DNA of 64,000 bases from Escherichia coli 042. GTDB lineage: Bacteria; Pseudomonadota; Gammaproteobacteria; Enterobacterales; Enterobacteriaceae. A program made the translations under genes and the position numbers. This document shows, in pieces, positions 10,147 through 20,917 of the stretch. The notes under the pieces are model-generated. The model saw only the letters and a list, made by a program, of their open reading frames with translations. It was not told the DNA's origin and searched no databases. The stretch is taken from the NCBI RefSeq assembly GCF_000027125.1, contig NC_017626.1, one strand, 5' to 3'. Each line of letters opens with the position of its first letter. Position 1 is the first letter of the stretch.

Positions 10147-12534
10147 TTATCCAATACGTGCTCGTGCGCGTTCCTGTTCACGGATCTGCGCCTGAATTTG
10201 TGTATAAAGCTGCGCCTGTTCATTATCGCGATCGGTCGCGGTCACGACCAGTGCGTAAGGCTCCTGCTCGCTGCTGAATGCTTCGCCCCAGTCTCTGTCC
10301 TGACGGGTAACAACAATAAACCATTTTTCATCCGGGTTACGCTGGCGAAAAGTCCAAATCGACGACTGTACCGTCCCGCGTTCCCGCTGTTGGGCTGATA
10401 CAACACGGTTAGTCTGGGCATCATCGGAGCGGGTTTCCGTCTCACTCTGCGTCTGGTGATTAAAACTGGCCTGCACTTCATCCAGCGAGCGGCCCTTAAC
10501 CAGCCGGAAACCGATCCGTGTGGCAGTATAATCCAGCCGGGTGGTACGCACGGCGGGTGAATATGCCAGCGTAACGCGGACTTCACGGGTTGCACGCTGC
10601 GATCGTAAAAAAGAAGCCGGGAAGGGCAGTTCAAAAAATTGGTGCGCGTTATTTTCTATCTGCTCTTCACATCGCATGACCACCACATTTTCAGAAGAAC
10701 GATATAACGCATCTTCATCAATGATGCCGTAGCCTGTCACGTCGCGCTCAATCTCCCGGTTTCTCGTTGCAGGCGCATTTCTATAGCTTTCTCTCATGGC
10801 CTGCGGAAAAGCCTGCGTCATCTCCTGAGAAACAGAAGCATGATTGACCAGCATTGCCCGCAGCATATTGGCAGACATTTCCGGGTATTCATTTAGCAGT
10901 CGACCCGCCAGATGTGTGATATACGGCGCGGCAAAGCTGGTGCCGCTGAGTTCTTTAAACAGCGTATTACCCTGAAACTGGTGATGGCAGCTTAATACGC
11001 CCAGACCGCGCATATGTGCCTGCCATTGCCCTTGCCGAACGTTGGAAGCGACATTGCCACCGTGCGCTACAACGTCAGGTTTAAACGCGCCTTTTACCGA
11101 CGGGCCGTGTCGGGTAAAAGGCGACGGTTGGTTTTCCGTTGCCGGGCTGAGATGCTGAATATCGCCAGGCCTACGCTGCGCATCCAACGTTGCGTTATGT
11201 CTGGCGACGCTGCCCACTGTCAGTACGTTCAGCGCCGGAGCCGGATCGATGATTACGCTGTCCTCATGCAACAGGTAGTCAGGATATTCATCCCGCCAGC
11301 TATTTTGCGGCACCGGAGGATCGTCGCTGCCTGCGAAATTCCCCGCAGAGACGACAAACAGTACATTATATTGCCGCGCCAGCGTATCTAACAGATACGC
11401 CATACCGCGAATATGTTTGCCGTCATAGGGCGCATTAGCATTCCCCAGCGACAGATTGAAAATGCGGCAACCGAGATCGGTAAAATACGCGACGGCGGCT
11501 GTTAGTGTGCTTTCAATCGTTTCGGCATTGAATTCAGCCCGCTCGTTCAGTACTTTCCCGTTATACAGCCATAGCTGCGGCTGCCAGAAATTGCTCTGGT
11601 TACAGGCTTCAACGTCGCCATACAGAGCAATACTCGCTACGGCGGTGCCATGCCCCTCTTGATCAAACGCATCCTGATTGGGAATAAAGCTGGCGCTTTC
11701 AGCAATGGCGGCACTTAACAGAGGGTGATTGGTGTTGATGCCGCTATCCAGAATACAGACTCTGGCCGCATTTACCGCAGGCGAAATCAGATGCTCTGGA
11801 AGTGTATTGATGTCCCGGTTAATTTGTTGATAGCTAATGCCGCTGGACGGTGGCAAATCAACCAACCTGACGTCCCGATGCGCTAACAGGTATTCTGCTT
11901 GCGCGAGCGAAACCTCTATCCGGTACATCAACAGGCTGTCCAGATTGACTTTATCCCGCCAGAGAATCCCCTGCTCTCTGAGCCAATTTTCAAAACGGGT
12001 ATACAGGTCGATACGTCTGGGGTGATGCGCCACATCGACTGGCCAGAGCTCCACATCCAGATTAAAGCGTTCCGCTACAGGAAAACCATAGCGCCGGAGT
12101 GCCCAGCTTTTACGATCTTCCGCCGACCAGCCGTCAATGCCGTCAAGCGCTTCGAGAATATTCCTGTAGGTTAGGTCCGTACGGGGAAGCCCCAGTTGCG
12201 CCAGATGGGTTTCGAAGGTTGTCAGACCCTGCTCATTAGTGAAAACGATACAGACCTGTTTACCTTCCTGACTGATGAACTCCACGCCGTGATGTATCAA
12301 TGCTGAAAAATTCATTGTGCCGCTGTAGTTCAGCTTGAGGATATAGCGCCCGTCATCGGCGCTGCCGGGTACTTGTGCCAGCGTTGGGCGCAAGGTATGG
12401 AGTTGCGTCAACAGCATTTGCCCGTGCTGGCGTAAATCGCCCCTGCGAATACGGGGCATATTGACTCTGCGGGTCCGTCGGTCGTTTTGAAGTGGTGCTT
12501 TGGTAATCGTTAGATGCTGATAATTCGCCGTCAT
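10147..12534 (-). CDS. Subtilisin-like S8 serine peptidase with ~250-aa N-terminal extension (IetS-like)
   Basis: 795 aa; catalytic D (VCILDSGIN), H (HGTAVASIA), S (GTSFAAPYITH); starts 9 nt after the ATPase stop. Confidence 0.8.
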   Translation of the reverse strand: MTANYQHLTITKAPLQNDRRTRRVNMPRIRRGDLRQHGQMLLTQLHTLRPTLAQVPGSADDGRYILKLNYSGTMNFSALIHHGVEFISQEGKQVCIVFTNEQGLTTFETHLAQLGLPRTDLTYRNILEALDGIDGWSAEDRKSWALRRYGFPVAERFNLDVELWPVDVAHHPRRIDLYTRFENWLREQGILWRDKVNLDSLLMYRIEVSLAQAEYLLAHRDVRLVDLPPSSGISYQQINRDINTLPEHLISPAVNAARVCILDSGINTNHPLLSAAIAESASFIPNQDAFDQEGHGTAVASIALYGDVEACNQSNFWQPQLWLYNGKVLNERAEFNAETIESTLTAAVAYFTDLGCRIFNLSLGNANAPYDGKHIRGMAYLLDTLARQYNVLFVVSAGNFAGSDDPPVPQNSWRDEYPDYLLHEDSVIIDPAPALNVLTVGSVARHNATLDAQRRPGDIQHLSPATENQPSPFTRHGPSVKGAFKPDVVAHGGNVASNVRQGQWQAHMRGLGVLSCHHQFQGNTLFKELSGTSFAAPYITHLAGRLLNEYPEMSANMLRAMLVNHASVSQEMTQAFPQAMRESYRNAPATRNREIERDVTGYGIIDEDALYRSSENVVVMRCEEQIENNAHQFFELPFPASFLRSQRATREVRVTLAYSPAVRTTRLDYTATRIGFRLVKGRSLDEVQASFNHQTQSETETRSDDAQTNRVVSAQQRERGTVQSSIWTFRQRNPDEKWFIVVTRQDRDWGEAFSSEQEPYALVVTATDRDNEQAQLYTQIQAQIREQERARARIG

Positions 12535-12543
12535 GGCAGTCCC

Positions 12544-13524
12544 TTATCGGTGGGTTCTGGCGTTTTCTCGCTGAGTTGCGTTTTTTAAATCTTTTAGCGT
12601 CAGGAATTCCTGATGACGCAGGATCATATGCTTGGTTGCCCGACGGACAATGCGCTCAATATCTGCACCGCTTTTCCCGAGCAGCAGGGATAATAGCTCG
12701 CTATCGTCCAGCTCAAACTGACGGCGGGTGCCGCGTAATTTTAACGCCAACAGCTCACGTAACTGCGCCTGATCCGGCAACGGAAATTCAATCACTTCAT
12801 CAAATCGACGCCAGATGGCGCTGTCCAGAATGTGTTCATGGTTAGTGGCCGCCAGAATCAGGCTTTTACCCTGATAAGCATCCATCATTTGTAAAACGGC
12901 ATTGACGACCCGGCGTAATTCACCGTGTTCGCCGCTGTCGCCACGCTCTTTTCCTATGGCATCAAACTCATCGAACAACACCACCATTGGGTGCTCTGCA
13001 ATAAAATCGAAAATTTTACGCAGATTGGCGGCGGTTTCTCCCAAAAACGAAGACACCAGTACGTCGAGGCGGACAATTGCCAGCGGCATGTCCAGTTCAA
13101 AAGCGATAACCTCTGCTGTCAGCGTTTTACCGCAGCCCGGCGGTCCGAAAAACATGATCTTACTGGCTGCTTTCATCCCGTAGCTATGCAATACATCGCT
13201 ACGCCGGTGCTCTTCAAGGAGTTCATCAATCACTGTAGCGCTGGTCGCCGGGAGGATCATTTCATCAAGGCTGCGCTGTGGCTGCCGGAGATCCAGCAAC
13301 GGCAGGCCCCTTTCTTTATCTATCGGTGCTTGAGGAAGCGCAGGCGAGCGCGAAGCCTGAACAAGACGATCGCCGTAAAGAATATGCTCCAGATCGTTAG
13401 CCAGAAGGTGGTGCTGTTTCTGACGTTCCTCATCAATAATGGCTTCCGAAACACGACGGAAAGTAGCGGTATCACCCGTTGCGCCCGCTTTTATTAGTTG
13501 CCTTAATATCTTACCGTTAGCCAT
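12544..13524 (-). CDS. AAA+ ATPase (IetA-like)
   Basis: Walker A GPPGCGKT, Walker B VVLFDEFD, sensor region LILAATN; ATG at 13524 has an AGGAG RBS (ORF track uses an upstream GTG at 13548). Confidence 0.8.
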   Translation of the reverse strand: MANGKILRQLIKAGATGDTATFRRVSEAIIDEERQKQHHLLANDLEHILYGDRLVQASRSPALPQAPIDKERGLPLLDLRQPQRSLDEMILPATSATVIDELLEEHRRSDVLHSYGMKAASKIMFFGPPGCGKTLTAEVIAFELDMPLAIVRLDVLVSSFLGETAANLRKIFDFIAEHPMVVLFDEFDAIGKERGDSGEHGELRRVVNAVLQMMDAYQGKSLILAATNHEHILDSAIWRRFDEVIEFPLPDQAQLRELLALKLRGTRRQFELDDSELLSLLLGKSGADIERIVRRATKHMILRHQEFLTLKDLKNATQRENARTHR

Positions 13525-13549
13525 TATTGACTCCTGAAACCACAGCACT

Positions 13550-16416
13550 TCATGCGGAAGGTGAACTCAACGTCCAGCTCACCGCGAATAATTGACGGGA
13601 CGTTATTTCCGTCGCCAGCTTTTGCTCGACCTCTTCCAGCAGACGGTCCTCTTCCTGCTCGATTTTTTTCTTTTCATCATGATACTGCAACATGATGCTA
13701 TCCCGCTCGCGTTCCAGCACCTTTAATGCGCGCTTGGCTTCCATTTTCTCTTTTAGAGAAGGAAGCTGACGGGCGGCTTTACGCGCCTCTTTAATTTCTG
13801 CATCTAACTGTTTGATACGTAAGTCCAGCGCGATACGTCGATCTTCTGACCAGCGTTCAAGTTTTTCTACTTCTTCATTGTAATAAAGTTCGTTATCGCG
13901 TTCGACCTGTTGGATAAAAGAATGCCGTAAAACCTCACATTGTGTTGTTAACGCAGGCAGCAAAGGCTGTTCTTCGACAGATGTTATCTCTGATAATGGC
14001 AGGCGAAGCAGACGGGATACGGTTTCCTCTGCCAGCACTTCGCCATTTTCTGTAACAGCGACGGTCAATAGTTTCTCTCGCTGTTGCTCCTGATTTCCGA
14101 TGCTGACTTTTGCCAGCAACAGCTGTCCCGATTTCCCGCAGAACAGTTTAACATCGGCCAGTTGTCCGCTTCTGGGTTGGTAGATGAAATGGAGCTTCTG
14201 GCAAACTGGGGATGTGGAAAGGCTTGCCCCTTCATGCAGGGCAGCATCAATCAGTTGCTTCCCATATCCCTGGCTGGGCCGGAAGAATTCGGCATCTTTT
14301 TCATCCGCAATGGGCCAGTTGACGTCAAAATACTTTCCTCTGGAACGAAAACCCGTCTCAGAACGTTGAAAATCGCTCTCGTCGCTCAGAAACATTTCCG
14401 CCAGCAGCAACAGATTTTCCTGGTAATCGTTTAACTGCGCGAGGGTGGTTGTACGTCGGGTTTTCAGATTGCGGACCACATCAACGTCAAAATGCTCGAA
14501 TAATGAACGCCGGGTTTCATTCTCCCGATTTTCCAGTTGATCTTTGAGTTCATCCTGCAGCTGATTAAATTCCTGTTCAATTTGTTCATCGGAGCGGCAG
14601 TGCTGGTATATCTCATGAATACGTCGTTCAATATCAACACCTGATTCGATCGACCCCAGAATGTCATCGGATGCGCCAAACACCCCTTCAAAAAGCTGGA
14701 ACTTCTGGCTCAATAATTCAAACACGCGCTGATCGGCACGGTTGCCTTTATTAATAAAATTAACCACCACGACATCGTGTTTTTGTCCATAGCGGTGAAC
14801 ACGCCCGATACGTTGCTCCACGCGCTGCGGATTCCACGGTAAATCATAATTGATTAACAGCGAACAAAACTGGAGGTTGATACCTTCTGCGCCCGCTTCA
14901 GTACAAATCATCAGGGTGCCTTCGTCCCTGAATTTTTCAACCAGCGCTGCCTTCATATCCGCCGTACTCGAACCGGAAACCCGGCCAGAGTTCTGATGTT
15001 TCTCCAGCCAGTCGCTGTAAATCTTCTTCGACACCGCATCGCTATTGCTGCCATTGAGCAGAACCACTTCTCCCTCGTAGCCACTTTCTGACAACAGTTG
15101 CGCCAGCCAGGTCTGGGTGCGTACGGACTCGGTAAAAATGACCGCCTTACGTAATCCGCCCAGTTCAGCCGTAAAGGTAAAGGCCCGATCGAGAACGCGT
15201 AACAGTGCTTCGGCCTTGGCGTTTTTGGTAATCGATGCCGCTAAAGTCTTATAATTTTTTAACTGGTCAATTTCGGCCTGTAGCGCCTGAGGATCGATGG
15301 TATCTTCGTCATCAATGCCTTCTTCATCGCTGTAATCGTCGTAATTTTCATAATCCGTCAGCGCATCCAGCACCGGCATTTTACTTTCAAGACGGTGGAT
15401 CATCGTTTCCAGCGTTCCCTGGATCGCTGTAGACGATGAGGCCAGAATTTTACGAATGACTAACGTTACTAGGTGACGCGCGCCGCTTTTGATCGCCAGT
15501 AGATCGTCCCGCTGCAAATAAGAGGAAACCTGTTTATAGAGCACTTCTTCGTCTTCCGTCGGACGAAAGTCTTCGGTTATTGAATGGCGTCGGGTAAAAC
15601 TGATCCCGCCTTCCTGCTGAACCTGTCGACGAAGCGTTCGATTACAGATTTTATTCAGACGAACCCTTAATAATGCCAGTTCTGCATCGTCAATATTCTG
15701 TCGGGAATAACGGGCCTTGAACGAAGCAAGGTCGCCGAAAAAATGAGGATCAATCACGGAAATCAGGCCGTAAAGCTCAAGAATACTGTTTTGTAGCGGC
15801 GTGGCGGAAAGCAGTATTTTTTTTCTGCCGGACAGTGCGCCACTGAGTTTTTTGGCTGTTTTAGCGCCATCGTTCTTGTAGATATTACGCAGTTTATGCG
15901 CCTCATCCATGACGACCAGATCCCACGGGATTCGTGCCAGCTCGTGCTCTTTACGGGCAGCGAATTCGTATGAACAAATGCAGATCGCCGCTTTCCCGGT
16001 TGCATTTTCAATATCAAAGGGATTATCGCTCCCCTCTTTAACCATTTGATTGAAGATCTTCGCTTCAATAATTTGTGAAGGCAGCGAAAATTTCTCTTCC
16101 AGCTCCTGGCTCCACTGCTTGCGTAGCGTTGCGGGTGCAATCAGCAACAGTTTTCGGCGGCGTTCAGCCCATTTTGCGCCAAAATCAGGCTGGCCTCAAT
16201 AGTTTTCCCCAGTCCCACTTCATCGGCCAGGATCACGCCATTCGACAGGGGAGATGCCAGCGCAAACATCGCAGCCTCTACCTGATGAGGATTCATATCA
16301 ACCCGTGCGCTGGCAATAGTTTGCGTCAGCGAGTCCTCGGCTTTGCCGCTTAACGTCAACCAGTGGGCCAGATAACTACGTTGGTGATCTGAATACATTT
16401 TCATACCTTTGTGCAA
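13550..16416 (-). pseudogene. SNF2-family helicase with ~450-aa coiled-coil-rich C-terminal extension, frameshifted near the N-terminus in this sequence
   Basis: Motif I ILADEVGLGKTIEA in the 16141..16416 piece; motif II VMDEAHKLRN and LLSATPLQN in the 13550..16147 piece. One extra nucleotide in the A4 or T4 run at plus 16172-16184 restores a continuous ~955-aa frame (...LILAQKWAERRRKLLLIAPATLRKQW...). Confidence 0.75.
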
Positions 16417-16698
16417 AGAGGGGGAGGGGAGCGCGACCGTATTTTACTGATATATGAACCGGGTTGCTAATCTGGAAGATGGCTCGCATTACATCCCCTT
16501 GTCGTTCACCGGGCTTCGCGGTCTCTTTTCCTCGCGTCTGCAAAATCAGGCGCCGGGCTTGACCTCCTGAACACTCCTTAGTGACGACACAATGGCGCGC
16601 TCGCGCCTTTTTTGTGCCGGTGCTCGGCTACACCTCAATGGCGGACCGGGCGGGGGCGTCGCAAGGCGCGCTGGATGGACTGTTCTGAGGAGGCAGGA

Positions 16699-17402
16699 AT
16701 GAGACGATTACCGCTGATGGTGGGCGTGATAGTGGGCGTAATGCTGGCTGTCGGCTGCCATGACCGTAGGGCTGGTGTGAGGACGCTGCTGGGCGATGGC
16801 GTGGAGCAATGGGGGCAGAAGTTGCCTTACGACCACTGGGAATTCAATTTTTTTACCCGAAAAATCTGCCGGCACTGGTGACAATGGTGTATCTGGAGGA
16901 CGGGGATATCCGGGAGAGCTTTTTCCGGCGACTGGATCCGACTGAACCCAGTCAGAGCAGTGTGGGAAAATGGAGCCAGCACGTAGGCGGTTTTTTAGCC
17001 AGTTTTAATATTGGCAAGGCGCTGCCTGTCAGGATGACGGTATGCTGGGACTCAGTTATCGATAAAAAGGCGTATGAGACGGAGATCTGGTTCAGCCGGG
17101 ATACGTGGCAGCAGATGCTGACTGCCTATCCTGATACTTATCGTCCGGGAAAAATATATTACCGAAACAAAATGATTATTGGCCTGCCCCCCGGTGGTAA
17201 AGTCAGGGTATGGTTAAAAGACAATCGTAATCCTGTTGTACTCCAGAATCCTGCCCGACAGTTCACCCTGACGGGAGATGATATGCTGATATGCAAAAAT
17301 GTTCCCAACAAGATTGATTTCAGTTACATCAAGGCTAACGGTTACGATCCATTTATCCGCGATTTTATCAAGGAAAAGCCCTATCCGTATGGTCACTGGT
17401 AG
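16699..17402 (+). pseudogene. Putative lipoprotein, frameshifted at a T7 homopolymer
   Basis: N-terminus MRRLPLMVGVIVGVMLAVGC (lipobox LAVGC); the two overlapping ORF-track frames (16612..16881, 16809..17402) join if the T7 run at 16848-16854 is T8 (...HWEFNFFYPKNLPALV...). Confidence 0.5.
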
Positions 17403-17429
17403 GGCGCAACGATCAGCAAAATTAAAATG

Positions 17430-17800
17430 ATCTTCTTGAGATCCTTTTAAGCTGCGCGTAATCTTCGGCTTGTAAACGGAAAAAGCCGCCTTGCGGCGGC
17501 TTTTTCCGTCCGATTAGAAGTCTTCGACCTCTTCTAATCGACTGTGGTAACTGGCTTGATGGAGCACAGATACCAAATGCTGTCCTTCCAGTGTAGCCGC
17601 TATAAGGCTTCAACTTCAAGAGTTCTGCGTATCTAAATCCACTATCCAGTTACCAATGGCTGCTGCCAGTGGCGTTAAGTCGTGTCTTACCGGGTTGGAC
17701 TCAAGACGATAGTTACCGGATAAGGCGCAGCGGTCGGGCTGAACGGGGGGGCGTGCACACAGCCCAGCCTAGAGGACTCGACTTATTTAATTGTGTAAAC
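17430..17800 (+). other. ColE1/pMB1-type plasmid replication-control region (RNAII 5' region / RNAI), truncated remnant
   Basis: Near-identity to the pBR322/pUC ori region as I recall it, e.g. GTCGTGTCTTACCGGGTTGGACTCAAGACGATAGTTACCGGATAAGGCGCAGCGGTCGGGCTGAACGGGGGG and CAGATACCAAAT..GTCCTTC..AGTGTAGCC; homology stops near 17795, before where the origin proper would lie. Confidence 0.7.
17476..17583 (-). ncRNA. RNAI-like antisense RNA of the ColE1-type remnant
   Basis: Minus strand from ACAGCATTTGGTATCTG... through a strong hairpin AAAAGCCGCC-GCAA-GGCGGCTTTT, matching the position and orientation of RNAI in ColE1 replicons; expression not assessable. Confidence 0.4.
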
Positions 17801-17867
17801 AGGGCCTCTCCGCGAAAGACCCTTATGCATCACCTGACGTTAAAAGTCACTACACCCAAGATGACGT

Positions 17868-18131
17868 TCAATGGCACCATGTGATTTCAATGTAAGCCCG
17901 GGCCGTCTGTTCCAGTACACCAGGCTCAGCGTTGTATGTGTTAGCTGCATCAAATACCAACGTCAGCACTTCAGGATACACAACCAGATATGTAATGGAG
18001 TTATCTTCATCCAATACTTTTCCCCACGCCTGCTCAATCAGATTTCTGAGAACCACCACCTCACGACTCTTACACCAGACATCGTTATTAAGTAGCAGCA
18101 CCATAAGATAAGGAGTGGTATCGTTAGCCAC
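17868..18131 (-). CDS. Hypothetical protein (unrecognised), between ColE1 remnant and IS1
   Basis: 87-aa ORF with protein-like composition; no recognisable motif. Confidence 0.2.
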   Translation of the reverse strand: MANDTTPYLMVLLLNNDVWCKSREVVVLRNLIEQAWGKVLDEDNSITYLVVYPEVLTLVFDAANTYNAEPGVLEQTARAYIEITWCH

Positions 18132-18271
18132 AGCCTCCCTGCTCCAGAGATAATATAAAGGGGGGGCTCAACAGATTGATCTTTACGTCGCTTACACTGC
18201 AAATATTCAGAAATGAGTCTATGCATTTCACCAGTAAAATCAGCCATCAGAGAGGGGGTAATGACTCCAAC

Positions 18272-18649
18272 TTATTGATAGTGTTTTATGTTCAGATAAT
18301 GCCCGATGACTTTGTCATGCAGCTCCACCGATTTTGAGAACGACAGCGACTTCCGTCCCAGCCGTGCCAGGTGCTGCCTCAGATTCAGGTTATGCCGCTC
18401 AATTCGCTGCGTATATCGCTTGCTGATTACGTGCAGCTTTCCCTTCAGGCGGGATTCATACAGCGGCCAGTCATCCGTCATCCATATCACCACGTCAAAG
18501 GGTGACAGCAGGCTCATAAGACGCCCCAGCGTCGCCATAGTGCGTTCACCGAATACGTGCGCAACAACCGTCTTCCGGAGCCTGTCATACGCGTAAAACA
18601 GCCAGCGCTGGCGCGATTTAGCCCCGACATAGCCCCACTGTTCGTCCAT
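18272..18649 (-). CDS. insB: IS1 InsB
   Basis: [48 protein letters not shown]... Confidence 0.9.
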
Positions 18650-18693
18650 TTCCGCGCAGACGATGACGTCACTGCCCGGCTGTATGCGCGAGG

Positions 18694-18969
18694 TTACCGA
18701 CTGCGGCCTGAGTTTTTTAAGTGACGTAAAATCGTGTTGAGGCCAACGCCCATAATGCGGGCAGTTGCCCGGCAGCCAACGCCATTCATGGCCATATCAA
18801 TGATTTTCTGGTGCGTACCGGGTTGAGAAGCGGTGTAAGTGAACTGCAGTTGCCATGTTTTACGGCAGTGAGAGCAGAGATAGCGCTGATGTCCGGCGGT
18901 GCTTTTGCCGTTACGCACCACCCCGTCAGTAGCTGAACAGGAGGGACAGCTGATAGAAACAGAAGCCAC
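18694..18969 (-). CDS. insA: IS1 InsA
   Basis: [43 protein letters not shown]... Confidence 0.9.
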
Positions 18970-19354
18970 TGGAGCACCTCAAAAACACCATCATACACTA
19001 AATCAGTAAGTTGGCAGCATCACCTGTTCCCAAAATTTTATTTATCTTCATCACTTACAGAGAATGCTCAACATTTGCTAGTCTTTTCCTGTCCTGGTAT
19101 CCAAAGTCTCCTCCCAAATATCCTGGATACTAGCTTAGACAAAATGAGATTATATTTATGGTAAATTATATCATAACAGCTTTTGTTAAGGATGCTGTGT
19201 AAGATAAAATATATGGGTTAGAGGCAGATTCTTTTGCAATCAGGAAGAAGATAATCACTGATGTTATCGGATATGTAGCAGTATTCGTTATAGCTATTTA
19301 GAGAAATTTGTGCCACAATTTATTATAGAGTTTAAAGAAAAATATATTGAAAAT

Positions 19355-19381
19355 AAAATCCGGGCTATTGCCCGGATTTTA
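19355..19381 (-). terminator. Rho-independent terminator downstream of the integrase gene
   Basis: Hairpin ATCCGGGC-TATT-GCCCGGAT followed by a T-run on the minus strand, immediately after the integrase stop. Confidence 0.6.
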
Positions 19382-20644
19382 TTATTTTAATGGGTTATTA
19401 ATCTTTGCATATTCAAATGGACTGATAAATTTTTCTCTGTTTGCATCCAGAAAATCGGCCCACCACTGTAGCATCAGTCGCCGTTCTTCCAGATGTTCTG
19501 CTTTATGAATGTAAGCAGCACGTACACCGTTACGTTCCTGATGGCTCATCTGACGTTCCACAGCATCGCGGGACCACAAACCTGATTCAATCAATGCACT
19601 GCACGCCATCGCCCGGAATCCATGGCCACAGACTTCCTGGGTTGTGTCATACCCCATCACCCTCAGGGCTTTATTTACAGTATTTTCACTGATTGGTTTA
19701 CGCGGGTCATGTGCACCCGTAAATATCAGACCATTTTCACCTGCCCATGTCTGAAGTTCTGTCAGTATGGCTACAGCCTGTTTACTGAGTGGCACAAGAT
19801 GTGGTGTCCGCATCTTGGAGCCCCGGTGTGAGAATTTTACGCCAGGCAGAGGTTCGCGTTCGGCTGGAATAGTCCACATGGCATTGTCAATATCAATTTC
19901 AGACCAGCGGGCATATCTGAGTTCACTGGAACGAATAAAAACCAGTAAATTCAGCATAACGGCAAGCCGGGTGACAGGCTGGCCTTTATAACCGTCAATA
20001 CGCGACAGAAGTTCAGGCAGGCGTGAAAGATTCAGAGCGGGGCGATGCTGGCGTTTTACCGTGGTCAATGCACCAGCCATATCCAGAGCCGGGTTATATC
20101 TGATGATGCCAGACTGTACGGCGTAACGCATTACAGCAGATATTCTTTGCTGCAGACGACTGGCGATTTCATAAATTTGTTTTGCTTCTGCAGCACGAAC
20201 AGGGATAAGCAGGTCCGGGGTATTGAGTGTTGTGATATCCCGGTTGCCGATAAAGGGGAAAACGTGTGTCTCGAGGCTTTTGAGTACTTTATCGCTGTGT
20301 GATTGTGCCCATTGTTTATTACTGGCATGCCAGCGTCGTGCAATATGTTCAAAAGAGAGCTGTAAATCAGGGACTACTTTTTTAACTCTTTTCTGTTCGC
20401 AAGGGTCAATCCCCTCTGAAATCAGTTTTCGGGCCTCATCCCGTTTTGTACGAGCTTCGGAGAGAGAAACTTCTGGATACACACCAAGTGCCAGAGTCTT
20501 CTCCTTACCCAGAATACGATAACGGAGACGCCAGTAACGGGAACCATTAGGATGTACCAGCAGGAACATGCCAGCCCCGTCAGTGAGTTTATAAGCCTTG
20601 TCAGTAGGCTTTGCTGCCCGGATTTTTGCGTCAGTCAGTGCCAT
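19382..20644 (-). CDS. int: P4-family tyrosine integrase
   Basis: 420 aa, MALTDAKIRAAKPTDKAYKLTDGAGMFLLVHPNGSRYWRLRYR...; C-terminal catalytic region HGFRAMA...RAAYIH; located ~200 bp from the 3' end of tRNA-Phe. Confidence 0.9.
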   Translation of the reverse strand: MALTDAKIRAAKPTDKAYKLTDGAGMFLLVHPNGSRYWRLRYRILGKEKTLALGVYPEVSLSEARTKRDEARKLISEGIDPCEQKRVKKVVPDLQLSFEHIARRWHASNKQWAQSHSDKVLKSLETHVFPFIGNRDITTLNTPDLLIPVRAAEAKQIYEIASRLQQRISAVMRYAVQSGIIRYNPALDMAGALTTVKRQHRPALNLSRLPELLSRIDGYKGQPVTRLAVMLNLLVFIRSSELRYARWSEIDIDNAMWTIPAEREPLPGVKFSHRGSKMRTPHLVPLSKQAVAILTELQTWAGENGLIFTGAHDPRKPISENTVNKALRVMGYDTTQEVCGHGFRAMACSALIESGLWSRDAVERQMSHQERNGVRAAYIHKAEHLEERRLMLQWWADFLDANREKFISPFEYAKINNPLK

Positions 20645-20841: not shown

Positions 20842-20917
20842 TGGTGCCCGGACTCGGAATCGAACCAAGGACACGGGGATTTTCAATCCCCTGCTCTACC
20901 GACTGAGCTATCCGGGC
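20842..20917 (-). tRNA. pheU: tRNA-Phe (GAA)
   Basis: Exact 76-nt tRNA-Phe as reverse complement (GCCCGGATAGCTCAGTCGGTAGAGCAGGGGATTGAAAATCCCCGTGTCCTTGGTTCGATTCCGAGTCCGGGCACCA); followed by yjdC-dsbD-cutA as at K-12 pheU. Confidence 0.95.

Follow-up and report, generated by a model that had tools for sequence, protein, structure and literature searches.

The single IS1 in the stretch of Escherichia coli 042 DNA analysed here (64 kb in all, referred to as the window) does not mark the site of a simple insertion. Comparison with related genomes indicated that this IS1 is a true rearrangement joint inside the island at pheU, at which two pieces of DNA that continue differently in other genomes have been brought together. 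On the right, the joint carries the tRNA-Phe gene, the integrase gene and the 357-bp 3' flank of the integrase gene, and on the left it carries the 3' two-thirds of a yfjJ-family gene, beyond which lie an older plasmid remnant and the anti-phage cargo. The joint probably arose by an IS1-promoted adjacent deletion within a P4-type pheU island or within a tandem island array, and we assign this reading a probability of about 0.55. The features around the joint are listed in Table 1.

Table 1. Features around the IS1 joint and their positions in the 64-kb window.
Feature	Position	Strand	Basis or remark
Small ColE1-type plasmid remnant	16668..17774	+	Plasmid homology with sharp ends at 16668 and 17774
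DUF2931 gene, N-terminally damaged (ORF)	16809-17402	+	Pfam DUF2931
RNAI	17476-17581	-	Rfam RF00106, 59.9 bits against a gathering score of 47
YagK/YfjJ-family (inovirus Gp2-type) pseudogene remnant	17774..18256	-	95-98.8% DNA identity to annotated genes
87-aa ORF	17868..18131	-	Second yfjJ-remnant frame; RefSeq relatives label it 'hypothetical protein'
69-aa ORF	18038..18247	-	First yfjJ-remnant frame, from an internal Met (MADFTGE...) to the G-run, where the frame is lost
CATCA, left microhomology copy	18245..18249	.	5 bp, in the flank
Left flanking 9-mer CAGAGAGGG	18248..18256	.	Native yfjJ-family coding sequence
Intact IS1 (IS1A-like)	18257..19024	-	768 bp; exact inverted-repeat matches, ORFs, Pfam
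insB' frame	18272-18775		
insA	18694-18969		91-aa InsA
CATCA, right microhomology copy	19018..19022	.	Inside the IS1 tip GCATCACC
Right flanking 9-mer TGTTCCCAA	19025..19033	.	Start of the integrase 3' flank
AT-rich non-coding region 3' of the integrase gene	19025..19381	.	357 bp, part of the integrase module
P4-type tyrosine integrase, 420 aa	19382..20644	-	Pfam Arm-DNA-bind_3, Phage_int_M, Phage_integrase
tRNA-Phe (pheU)	20842..20917	-	Island integration site; adjoins yjdC/dicD and dsbD

The element itself was of ordinary structure. Members of the IS1 family are about 768 bp long and end in imperfect terminal inverted repeats of about 23 bp, and the repeats GGTAATGACTCCAACTTATTGAT (18257-18279, plus strand) and GGTGATGCTGCCAACTTACTGAT (19002-19024, minus strand) were matched exactly, 768 bp apart and once each in the window, which held one copy of IS1. 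The right end (19024) is IRL, with the insA promoter, and the left end (18257) is IRR. As expected of the family, an A6C frameshift motif was found at IS1 position 307, from which the -1 fusion InsAB' would be 232 aa long, and the Pfam search of the IS1 products returned Zn_ribbon_InsA, HTH_Tnp_IS1 and DDE_Tnp_IS1. Compared with the IS1 (IS1A-type) of Escherichia coli, the window element had the same length, the canonical 23-bp repeats, the insA/insB' arrangement with A6C and the DDE_Tnp_IS1 domain, with nothing unusual. RefSeq labels the equivalent place in relatives 'IS1-like element IS1A family transposase'. The element is complete and potentially active. In the promoter scan near IS1, solely the known IRL promoter-like site (19017-18990) was detected, and no outward promoter was detected at the left IS1 end toward the 69-aa ORF on the minus strand.

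The two sides of the element were then compared with each other. The initial annotation, which was made from this DNA alone, had reported that the 9-mers flanking IS1 do not match, and this was confirmed, as CAGAGAGGG and TGTTCCCAA were identical at 0 of 9 positions. The 8-9-bp direct target duplication known from the IS1 family, which is a mark of simple insertion and not of the element, was absent here. No in-register duplication of k = 7-14 bp was found at IS1, and no imperfect or near-matching 7-9-mer was found within 30 bp of either IS1 end, so that the imperfect 8-9 bp duplication that the annotation had named as evidence against its own reading was not recovered on re-inspection. The absence of a duplication at IS1 indicated a later rearrangement. 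The left 9-mer CAGAGAGGG also occurred in IS1-free yfjJ homologues, where it was followed by AATGGCC..., and it is therefore native coding sequence and not a target duplication. In addition, the flanks of IS1 were identical in all the IS1-bearing relatives fetched, indicating that the joint is not an assembly accident of one genome. A cryptic IS1-like end in the left flank (ACCAGTAAAATCAGCCATCA, compared with the IS1 tip) was considered as a guide for the event; in 178 of 2,000 shuffles the local alignment scored at least as high, so that the resemblance was not significant.

The annotation had proposed that related islands and ColE1-type plasmids be compared in order to trace the original continuation of both flanks, and this comparison led on the left to the rest of yfjJ and on the right to unrelated cargo. 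CFSAN004176 and A24, which carry no IS1 at this place, were collinear with the window at 99.3% identity, at least from 10468 and up to exactly 18256. Past 18256, both genomes read AATGGCCTTATT..., which is the remainder of an intact 567-bp yfjJ, and beyond this gene lie a small yfjJ, two zinc-ribbon genes and a Gp2-like gene. The right flank was found at 97.5% identity in CH4784 (at pheU) and Rb-50 (at pheV), where it was preceded by cargo of the enolase-like/SDR/MFS/GntR type. The collinearity with relatives thus broke exactly at both IS1 ends, so that IS1 is a true rearrangement joint, as the annotation had suspected, and not a simple insertion. The 357-bp right flank was present in 50 of 5,426 complete E. 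coli genomes, always beside this integrase, and a more distant search for further continuations of this flank returned nothing past the 50 genomes.

The DNA on the left of IS1 was identified by its homologues. YagK/YfjJ homologues of 17774-18256 were found in about 840 genomes, nearly all of them chromosomal, and 1,652 of the 1,653 matches to the yfjJ-type sequence between the plasmid block and IS1 were chromosomal. The alignment revealed that the remnant lacks the promoter and the first 50 codons of yfjJ; its sequence sets in with codon 51, shortly before an internal Met (…AIPSL-MADFTGE…). Two frameshifts were also revealed: one base is missing from a G-run (about 18162-18168), and one extra base is present at about 17885. 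On the basis of the truncation and the two indels, the alignment indicated that the 69-aa and the 87-aa ORF represent different frames of a single decayed YagK/YfjJ-family pseudogene, which was halved by the IS1 joint. The intact homologue has 189 aa and matched Pfam PF11726 (YagK_YfjJ_C) with E = 7.5e-10, and no Pfam match was obtained for the 69-aa or the 87-aa ORF; the window copy does not carry PF11726 over an intact reading frame. The ORFs described in the initial annotation as orphans are therefore not orphans. The annotation had further noted that the ORF at 18038-18247, with its start 9 nt away from IS1, has no room for a promoter of its own. Its ATG indeed lies at 18247, 9 nt from the IS1 end, and the sequence ahead of it contains no Shine-Dalgarno; the remark on the promoter is correct but carries no meaning, because the supposed start is an internal Met of a 5'-truncated, frameshifted pseudogene. 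The two RefSeq "hypothetical proteins" by IS1 can accordingly be corrected to yfjJ pseudogene remnants.

A single IS1 with unrelated flanks at the point where collinearity ends is the footprint expected of an adjacent deletion. In such an event, IS1 would first have inserted beside the present joint, on one of its sides, with a normal 9-bp duplication. By intramolecular replicative transposition, the transposase would then have linked an end of IS1 to another target in the same DNA molecule, and the intervening DNA would have been discarded along with one copy of the duplication, so that one IS1 remained between two unrelated flanks. The DNA lost in this way would comprise the first 50 codons and the promoter of yfjJ, and probably also the adjoining small yfjJ, zinc-ribbon and Gp2-like genes and the original continuation past the integrase; the extent of the lost cargo was judged from the IS1-free relatives. 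The canonical order of P4-like islands is int, then yfjI, then yfjJ, as in CP4-57. The int-to-yfjJ orientation across IS1 fits this order, as an internal deletion would preserve it, and this favours the adjacent deletion. The same reading is favoured by the absence of a second IS1 from the window, which leaves no local inversion partner, and by the distribution of the yfjJ 5' part. CFSAN004176 and A24 were the only genomes with this missing segment at 100% identity, and among the top matches no IS1-bearing genome contained it as a reciprocal product, which points to loss and not to relocation.

Progenitor alleles of the deletion were sought in the 5,426 complete E. coli genomes. The exact progenitor junctions would be GGCAGCATCACCCAGAGAGGGAATGG for IS1 in intact yfjJ and TGTTCCCAAGGTAATGACTCCAAC for IS1 in the integrase flank, each with its duplication. 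One query consisted of the IS1 tip, CAGAGAGGG and the remaining yfjJ, and the other consisted of the CH4784-type flank, TGTTCCCAA and the IS1 IRR end, with a match defined as at least 80% query coverage. Neither the yfjJ::IS1 allele with the CAGAGAGGG duplication nor the int-flank::IS1 allele with the TGTTCCCAA duplication was found (0 of 5,426 genomes). As no progenitor state was found in these genomes, we infer the order of the steps and the role of IS1 as the cause of the loss, along with the flank of the original insertion and the size of the lost segment. Compared with the classical IS1-promoted adjacent deletions, the event in the window was deduced from comparative genomics, by which it is inseparable from recombination between IS1 copies. 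Previous work has documented both adjacent deletion and IS-IS recombination as causes of insertion sequences without duplications (PMC11708052).

Recombination between IS1 copies is the less probable of these two causes here, but it has substantial evidence on its side. It would consist of a RecA-dependent crossover between two IS1, one in yfjJ and one downstream of the integrase, each with its own duplication. The two copies could have shared an island, occupied neighbouring islands in tandem or lain on separate replicons, and the crossover, by deleting or exchanging the DNA between them, would yield one hybrid IS1 with flanks from two different insertions. The predicted product is identical to the one observed, that is, one IS1 whose flanks do not match and whose ends coincide exactly with the breakpoint. 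The capacity of the resident IS1 for IS1-IS1 exchange is demonstrated by MLI121, MLI114 and BEC1-S17, in which two IS1 lie around a resistance region. The Phe-tRNA sites hold tandem islands, for example in CH4784, and in CFSAN004176 the homologous cargo block lies in the leuX island, in the opposite orientation relative to the integrase of that island, indicating that the block has moved between islands. However, no two-IS1 progenitor was found at these positions among the 5,426 genomes, and the window has no second IS1 that could have served as partner. Moreover, IS1 displays no demonstrated mosaic of two variants, the copies at this site differing by only 2-4 SNPs. As a counterpoint to a deletion within a single island, the leuX block in CFSAN004176 is also compatible with a joint that formed, equally, from two islands fused through IS1 copies.

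Far less probable is the simple insertion of IS1 into a joint that already existed, with a duplication that decayed or was never made. This explanation takes as the ancestral site those genomes in which the flanks are adjacent without IS1, and seven complete genomes are of this kind (55989, UMNK88, ETEC1749, H3, UPEC69, AF58 and HSP425). The initial annotation had stated that loci with the same flanks and no IS1 would speak against its reading. Such loci formally exist, but their sequence indicated that they are derived. A joint predating IS1 would read ...CATCAGAGAGGG directly joined to TGTTCCCAA... in an IS1-free island. The IS1-less junction reads …TCAGCCATCA-CC-TGTTCCC… (…GCCATCA|CC|TGTTCCC); it is missing GAGAGGG, a 7-bp piece of native yfjJ that every homologue and the IS1-bearing form contain, and it keeps the last bases of the IS1 tip (2 bp of IS1). 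In the BLAST results of these alleles, the two flanks overlapped by the 5-bp CATCA. One 773-bp deletion from CATCA to CATCA converts the IS1-bearing form into the scar, whereas the reverse conversion needs the seven native bases to be restored with no template, and the IS1-less loci are therefore descendants of the IS1-bearing form. The seven loci are secondary scars and not empty sites. The flanking 9-mers, with no shared base, are likewise not a decayed duplicate.

Each allele of the SNP at 17990 (A/G) was found with both the IS1 and the scar states, and both states were present at pheV and at pheU. This distribution, which comprises one SNP and the location and for which recombination is the alternative, suggests that the 773-bp CATCA deletion arose independently more than once. 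The deletion resembles nearly precise IS excision by slipped mispairing between short direct repeats, in that CATCA repeats are likewise involved and a residual IS1 terminus is left. It differs from such excision in that it proceeded without a target duplication, so that the flank lost 7 bp and 2 bp of IS1 stayed behind. The case also illustrates a pitfall, as a locus with the same flanks and no insertion sequence may be a secondary excision scar and not an empty site.

The annotation had also proposed that IS1 is the breakpoint at which plasmid-derived DNA was joined to the island. Such a fusion could have passed through an IS1-mediated cointegrate. IS1 forms cointegrates, and a truncated ColE1-type replicon does lie nearby, as the annotation had recognized. 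The plasmid homology of this block had an identity of 95.8% to E. albertii pEA5_2 and of 89-91% to other small ColE1-type plasmids, which carry rop, a Tle1-like DUF2235 gene and DUF2931. The RNAI antisense RNA gene of a ColE1-type replicon was present, and the complete RNAII primer region up to the origin was not, since the homology stopped about 300 nt past the inferred RNAII start. The ColE1-type replication origin lies about 555 nt downstream of the RNAII start. With just about 300 nt of the RNAII region kept, the origin would, from ColE1 biology, be gone, and we infer that the remnant is dead. The 147-bp "replication initiation protein" annotated in RefSeq relatives can be corrected to a remnant of this dead ColE1-type origin. 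As to the breakpoint, the proposal was not borne out, and a plasmid fusion through IS1 is highly improbable. The right end of the remnant (17774) lies 483 bp to the left of IS1, with chromosomal-island yfjJ DNA in between, and the equivalent plasmid/yfjJ junction was found beside intact yfjJ in three IS1-free genomes (CFSAN004176, A24 and DETEC-P1056). DETEC-P1056 retains a bigger plasmid piece, with rop, the Tle1-like gene, DUF2931 and an ori fragment, and has no IS1. The junction in IS1-free genomes indicated that IS1 played no part in the embedding of the plasmid remnant, which most likely came first.

The weakest explanation, a repeat-induced misjoin at an IS1 copy in one assembly, is conceivable in that IS1 is multicopy in E. 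coli (a median of 11 matching places per genome), but it can practically be set aside, as the identical joint was found in 38 independently sequenced complete genomes, at pheV and pheU, and derived alleles (the scars and the resistance-region insertion) have the same outer flanks.

The island was assigned by its integrase, its integration site and its relatives. The P4-like integrase gene directly adjoins the 3' end of tRNA-Phe, as is characteristic of a P4-type tRNA island, and the neighbours of pheU were identified by comparing annotated genomes. Allowing up to 3 mismatches, a search of the 64-kb window recovered no second copy of the tRNA-Phe 3' end direct repeat; GI-pheV has a length of 87-110 kb in relatives (PMC11537424), and the island probably extends past the left end of the window. 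The cargo to the left of the plasmid remnant forms an anti-phage block with a DrmD-like SNF2 helicase, an IteA/IteS-like AAA ATPase and S8 peptidase, a methyltransferase and a DEAD helicase. The region 16600-19400 was present at full length and 99.5-99.9% identity in 38 complete E. coli genomes, among them O104:H4 outbreak strains, E24377A and BR1220, which have the island at pheV. Comparison with the intP4.5 GI-pheV of E. coli 55989, O104:H4, E24377A and UMNK88 (PMC11537424) revealed a shared integrase, integrase-proximal region and helicase cargo at 99.8-100% identity. The published islands are located at pheV, whereas the window island is located at pheU. This similarity indicated that the window island is an intP4.5-type GI-pheV, a described type. 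The intP4.5 islands have been described as mosaics of modules with insertion sequences between them (PLoS Genet 2024, PMC11537424); IS1 has 0 occurrences in the main text of that paper, and the joint, the scar alleles and the plasmid remnant are undescribed there. In an island type that O104:H4 and related pathogens carry, the joint documents how anti-phage cargo came to be fused with an integrase module. Neither the element nor the island type nor the mechanism is new, and the understanding of IS1 and of genomic islands is unchanged; the scar alleles and the docking of resistance regions are useful details and are unsurprising.

In some relatives, a resistance region with CTX-M-15 among its genes was later captured by the same IS1. 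In MLI121, MLI114 and BEC1-S17, an arrangement of IS1, resistance genes and IS1 replaces the single IS1, with the outer flanks unchanged; the two-IS1 state of MLI114 was assigned from its matching hit profile, and the structure in BEC1-S17 is a related one. In MLI121, the two IS1 bound a 36-kb resistance region with CTX-M-15, TEM-1, tet(A), mer, sul1 and dfrA5. MLI121 was considered as the ancestral, undeleted state and was rejected, since a recent resistance region of the Tn21/Tn3/ISEcp1 type makes up the 36 kb between its IS1 copies. The resistance region is a recent acquisition through the resident IS1 and not the ancestral state. The recurrent 773-bp deletion and the docking of IS1-bounded multiresistance regions would fit an IS1 joint that is a repeatedly re-used hotspot and not a one-off scar, a reading that we hold tentatively, at somewhat less than even odds. 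If it is true, the island would be a platform that fixes ESBL genes in enteroaggregative and diarrhoeagenic lineages. The arrangement in MLI121, MLI114 and BEC1-S17 is alike to the docking of IS26 or IS1 composites at a resident insertion sequence, and it is a feature of these relatives and not of the window.

The same 773-bp deletion, which removes IS1, was found on both alleles of the SNP at 17990, and it was present at pheV as well as at pheU (loci L002, L007, L009-L011, L024 and L025 of the genomes lacking IS1). This distribution hinted at a loss that recurs and is directed by microhomology. The CATCA repeats bounding the deletion (18245-18249 and 19018-19022) continue imperfectly, reading CAGCCATCA versus CAGC-ATCA.

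None of the 5,426 complete genomes was 100% identical to the window over 16600-19400. In E. coli MLI121 (L006, NZ_CP117016.1 1953921-1990950), the single IS1 of the window (18257-19024) is replaced by two copies, one IS1A-type and one IS1B-type, which enclose a 36-kb resistance region. The outer flanks of this arrangement were identical to those of the window. Strain MLI114 appears to carry the same arrangement, as judged from its matching hit profile, and a related, shorter structure was observed in BEC1-S17-ESBL-09 (L008). At position 20162 in the integrase gene, the window carries G, versus A in 11 of the 13 relatives compared; the G is shared by MLI121 and BEC1-S17-ESBL-09. In E. coli DLI.5a (NZ_CP103972.1 1885550-1889550), the 357-bp flank between IS1 and the integrase gene is interrupted by ISKpn26 (IS5-like), inserted at window position ~19130, about 105 bp to the right of IS1.

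A more complete chromosomal copy of the small ColE1-type plasmid was found in E. coli DETEC-P1056 (L016, NZ_CP116169.1 4210517-4215146), where it is adjoined by an intact yfjJ. This copy appears to represent the plasmid integration at an earlier stage than the remnant that is left in the window. The DUF2931 gene of the window (16668-17402) is damaged at its N-terminus and retains a 197-aa ORF, and in near-identical RefSeq relatives a separate 183-bp ORF is annotated upstream of the DUF2931 ORF. In plasmids, CFSAN004176 and A24, the gene is 705 bp long (234 aa). In the truncated RNAII region, a 147-bp ORF (17616-17762, corresponding to L001 10017-10163) is labelled "replication initiation protein" by RefSeq/PGAP. 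This label recurs across dozens of genomes and plasmids, probably as an artefact of the way in which ColE1-type origins are annotated. An isrK match lies directly to the left of the left boundary of the plasmid remnant (16668); isrK is an Hfq-binding sRNA of Salmonella islands.

Features of the window and gene content of two related loci
Feature	Location	Strand	Remark
IS30, IS3 and IS110 transposase genes	1745-4915		left of anti-phage cargo
DrmD-like SNF2 helicase	within 5637-16147		anti-phage cargo; score under NCBIfam cut-off
IteA/IteS-like AAA ATPase and S8 peptidase	within 5637-16147		anti-phage cargo
Methyltransferase	within 5637-16147		anti-phage cargo
DEAD/DEAH restriction-type helicase	within 5637-16147		anti-phage cargo
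isrK (Rfam)	16534-16613	+	56.8 bits; gathering score 50
Resistance region	MLI121		CTX-M-15/ISEcp1, TEM-1, tet(A), two mer operons, class 1 integron with dfrA5-sul1, catA fragment
Plasmid copy	DETEC-P1056		rop, Tle1-like DUF2235 phospholipase gene, full DUF2931, ori fragment

In the left part of the window, the cargo at 5637-16147 has the appearance of a composite anti-phage locus. The island DNA methyltransferase in this cluster (8510-10137, minus strand) is split into two overlapping ORFs of 302 and 247 aa, versus a single 1,629-bp gene at the same place in O104:H4; the window copy is therefore probably frameshifted.
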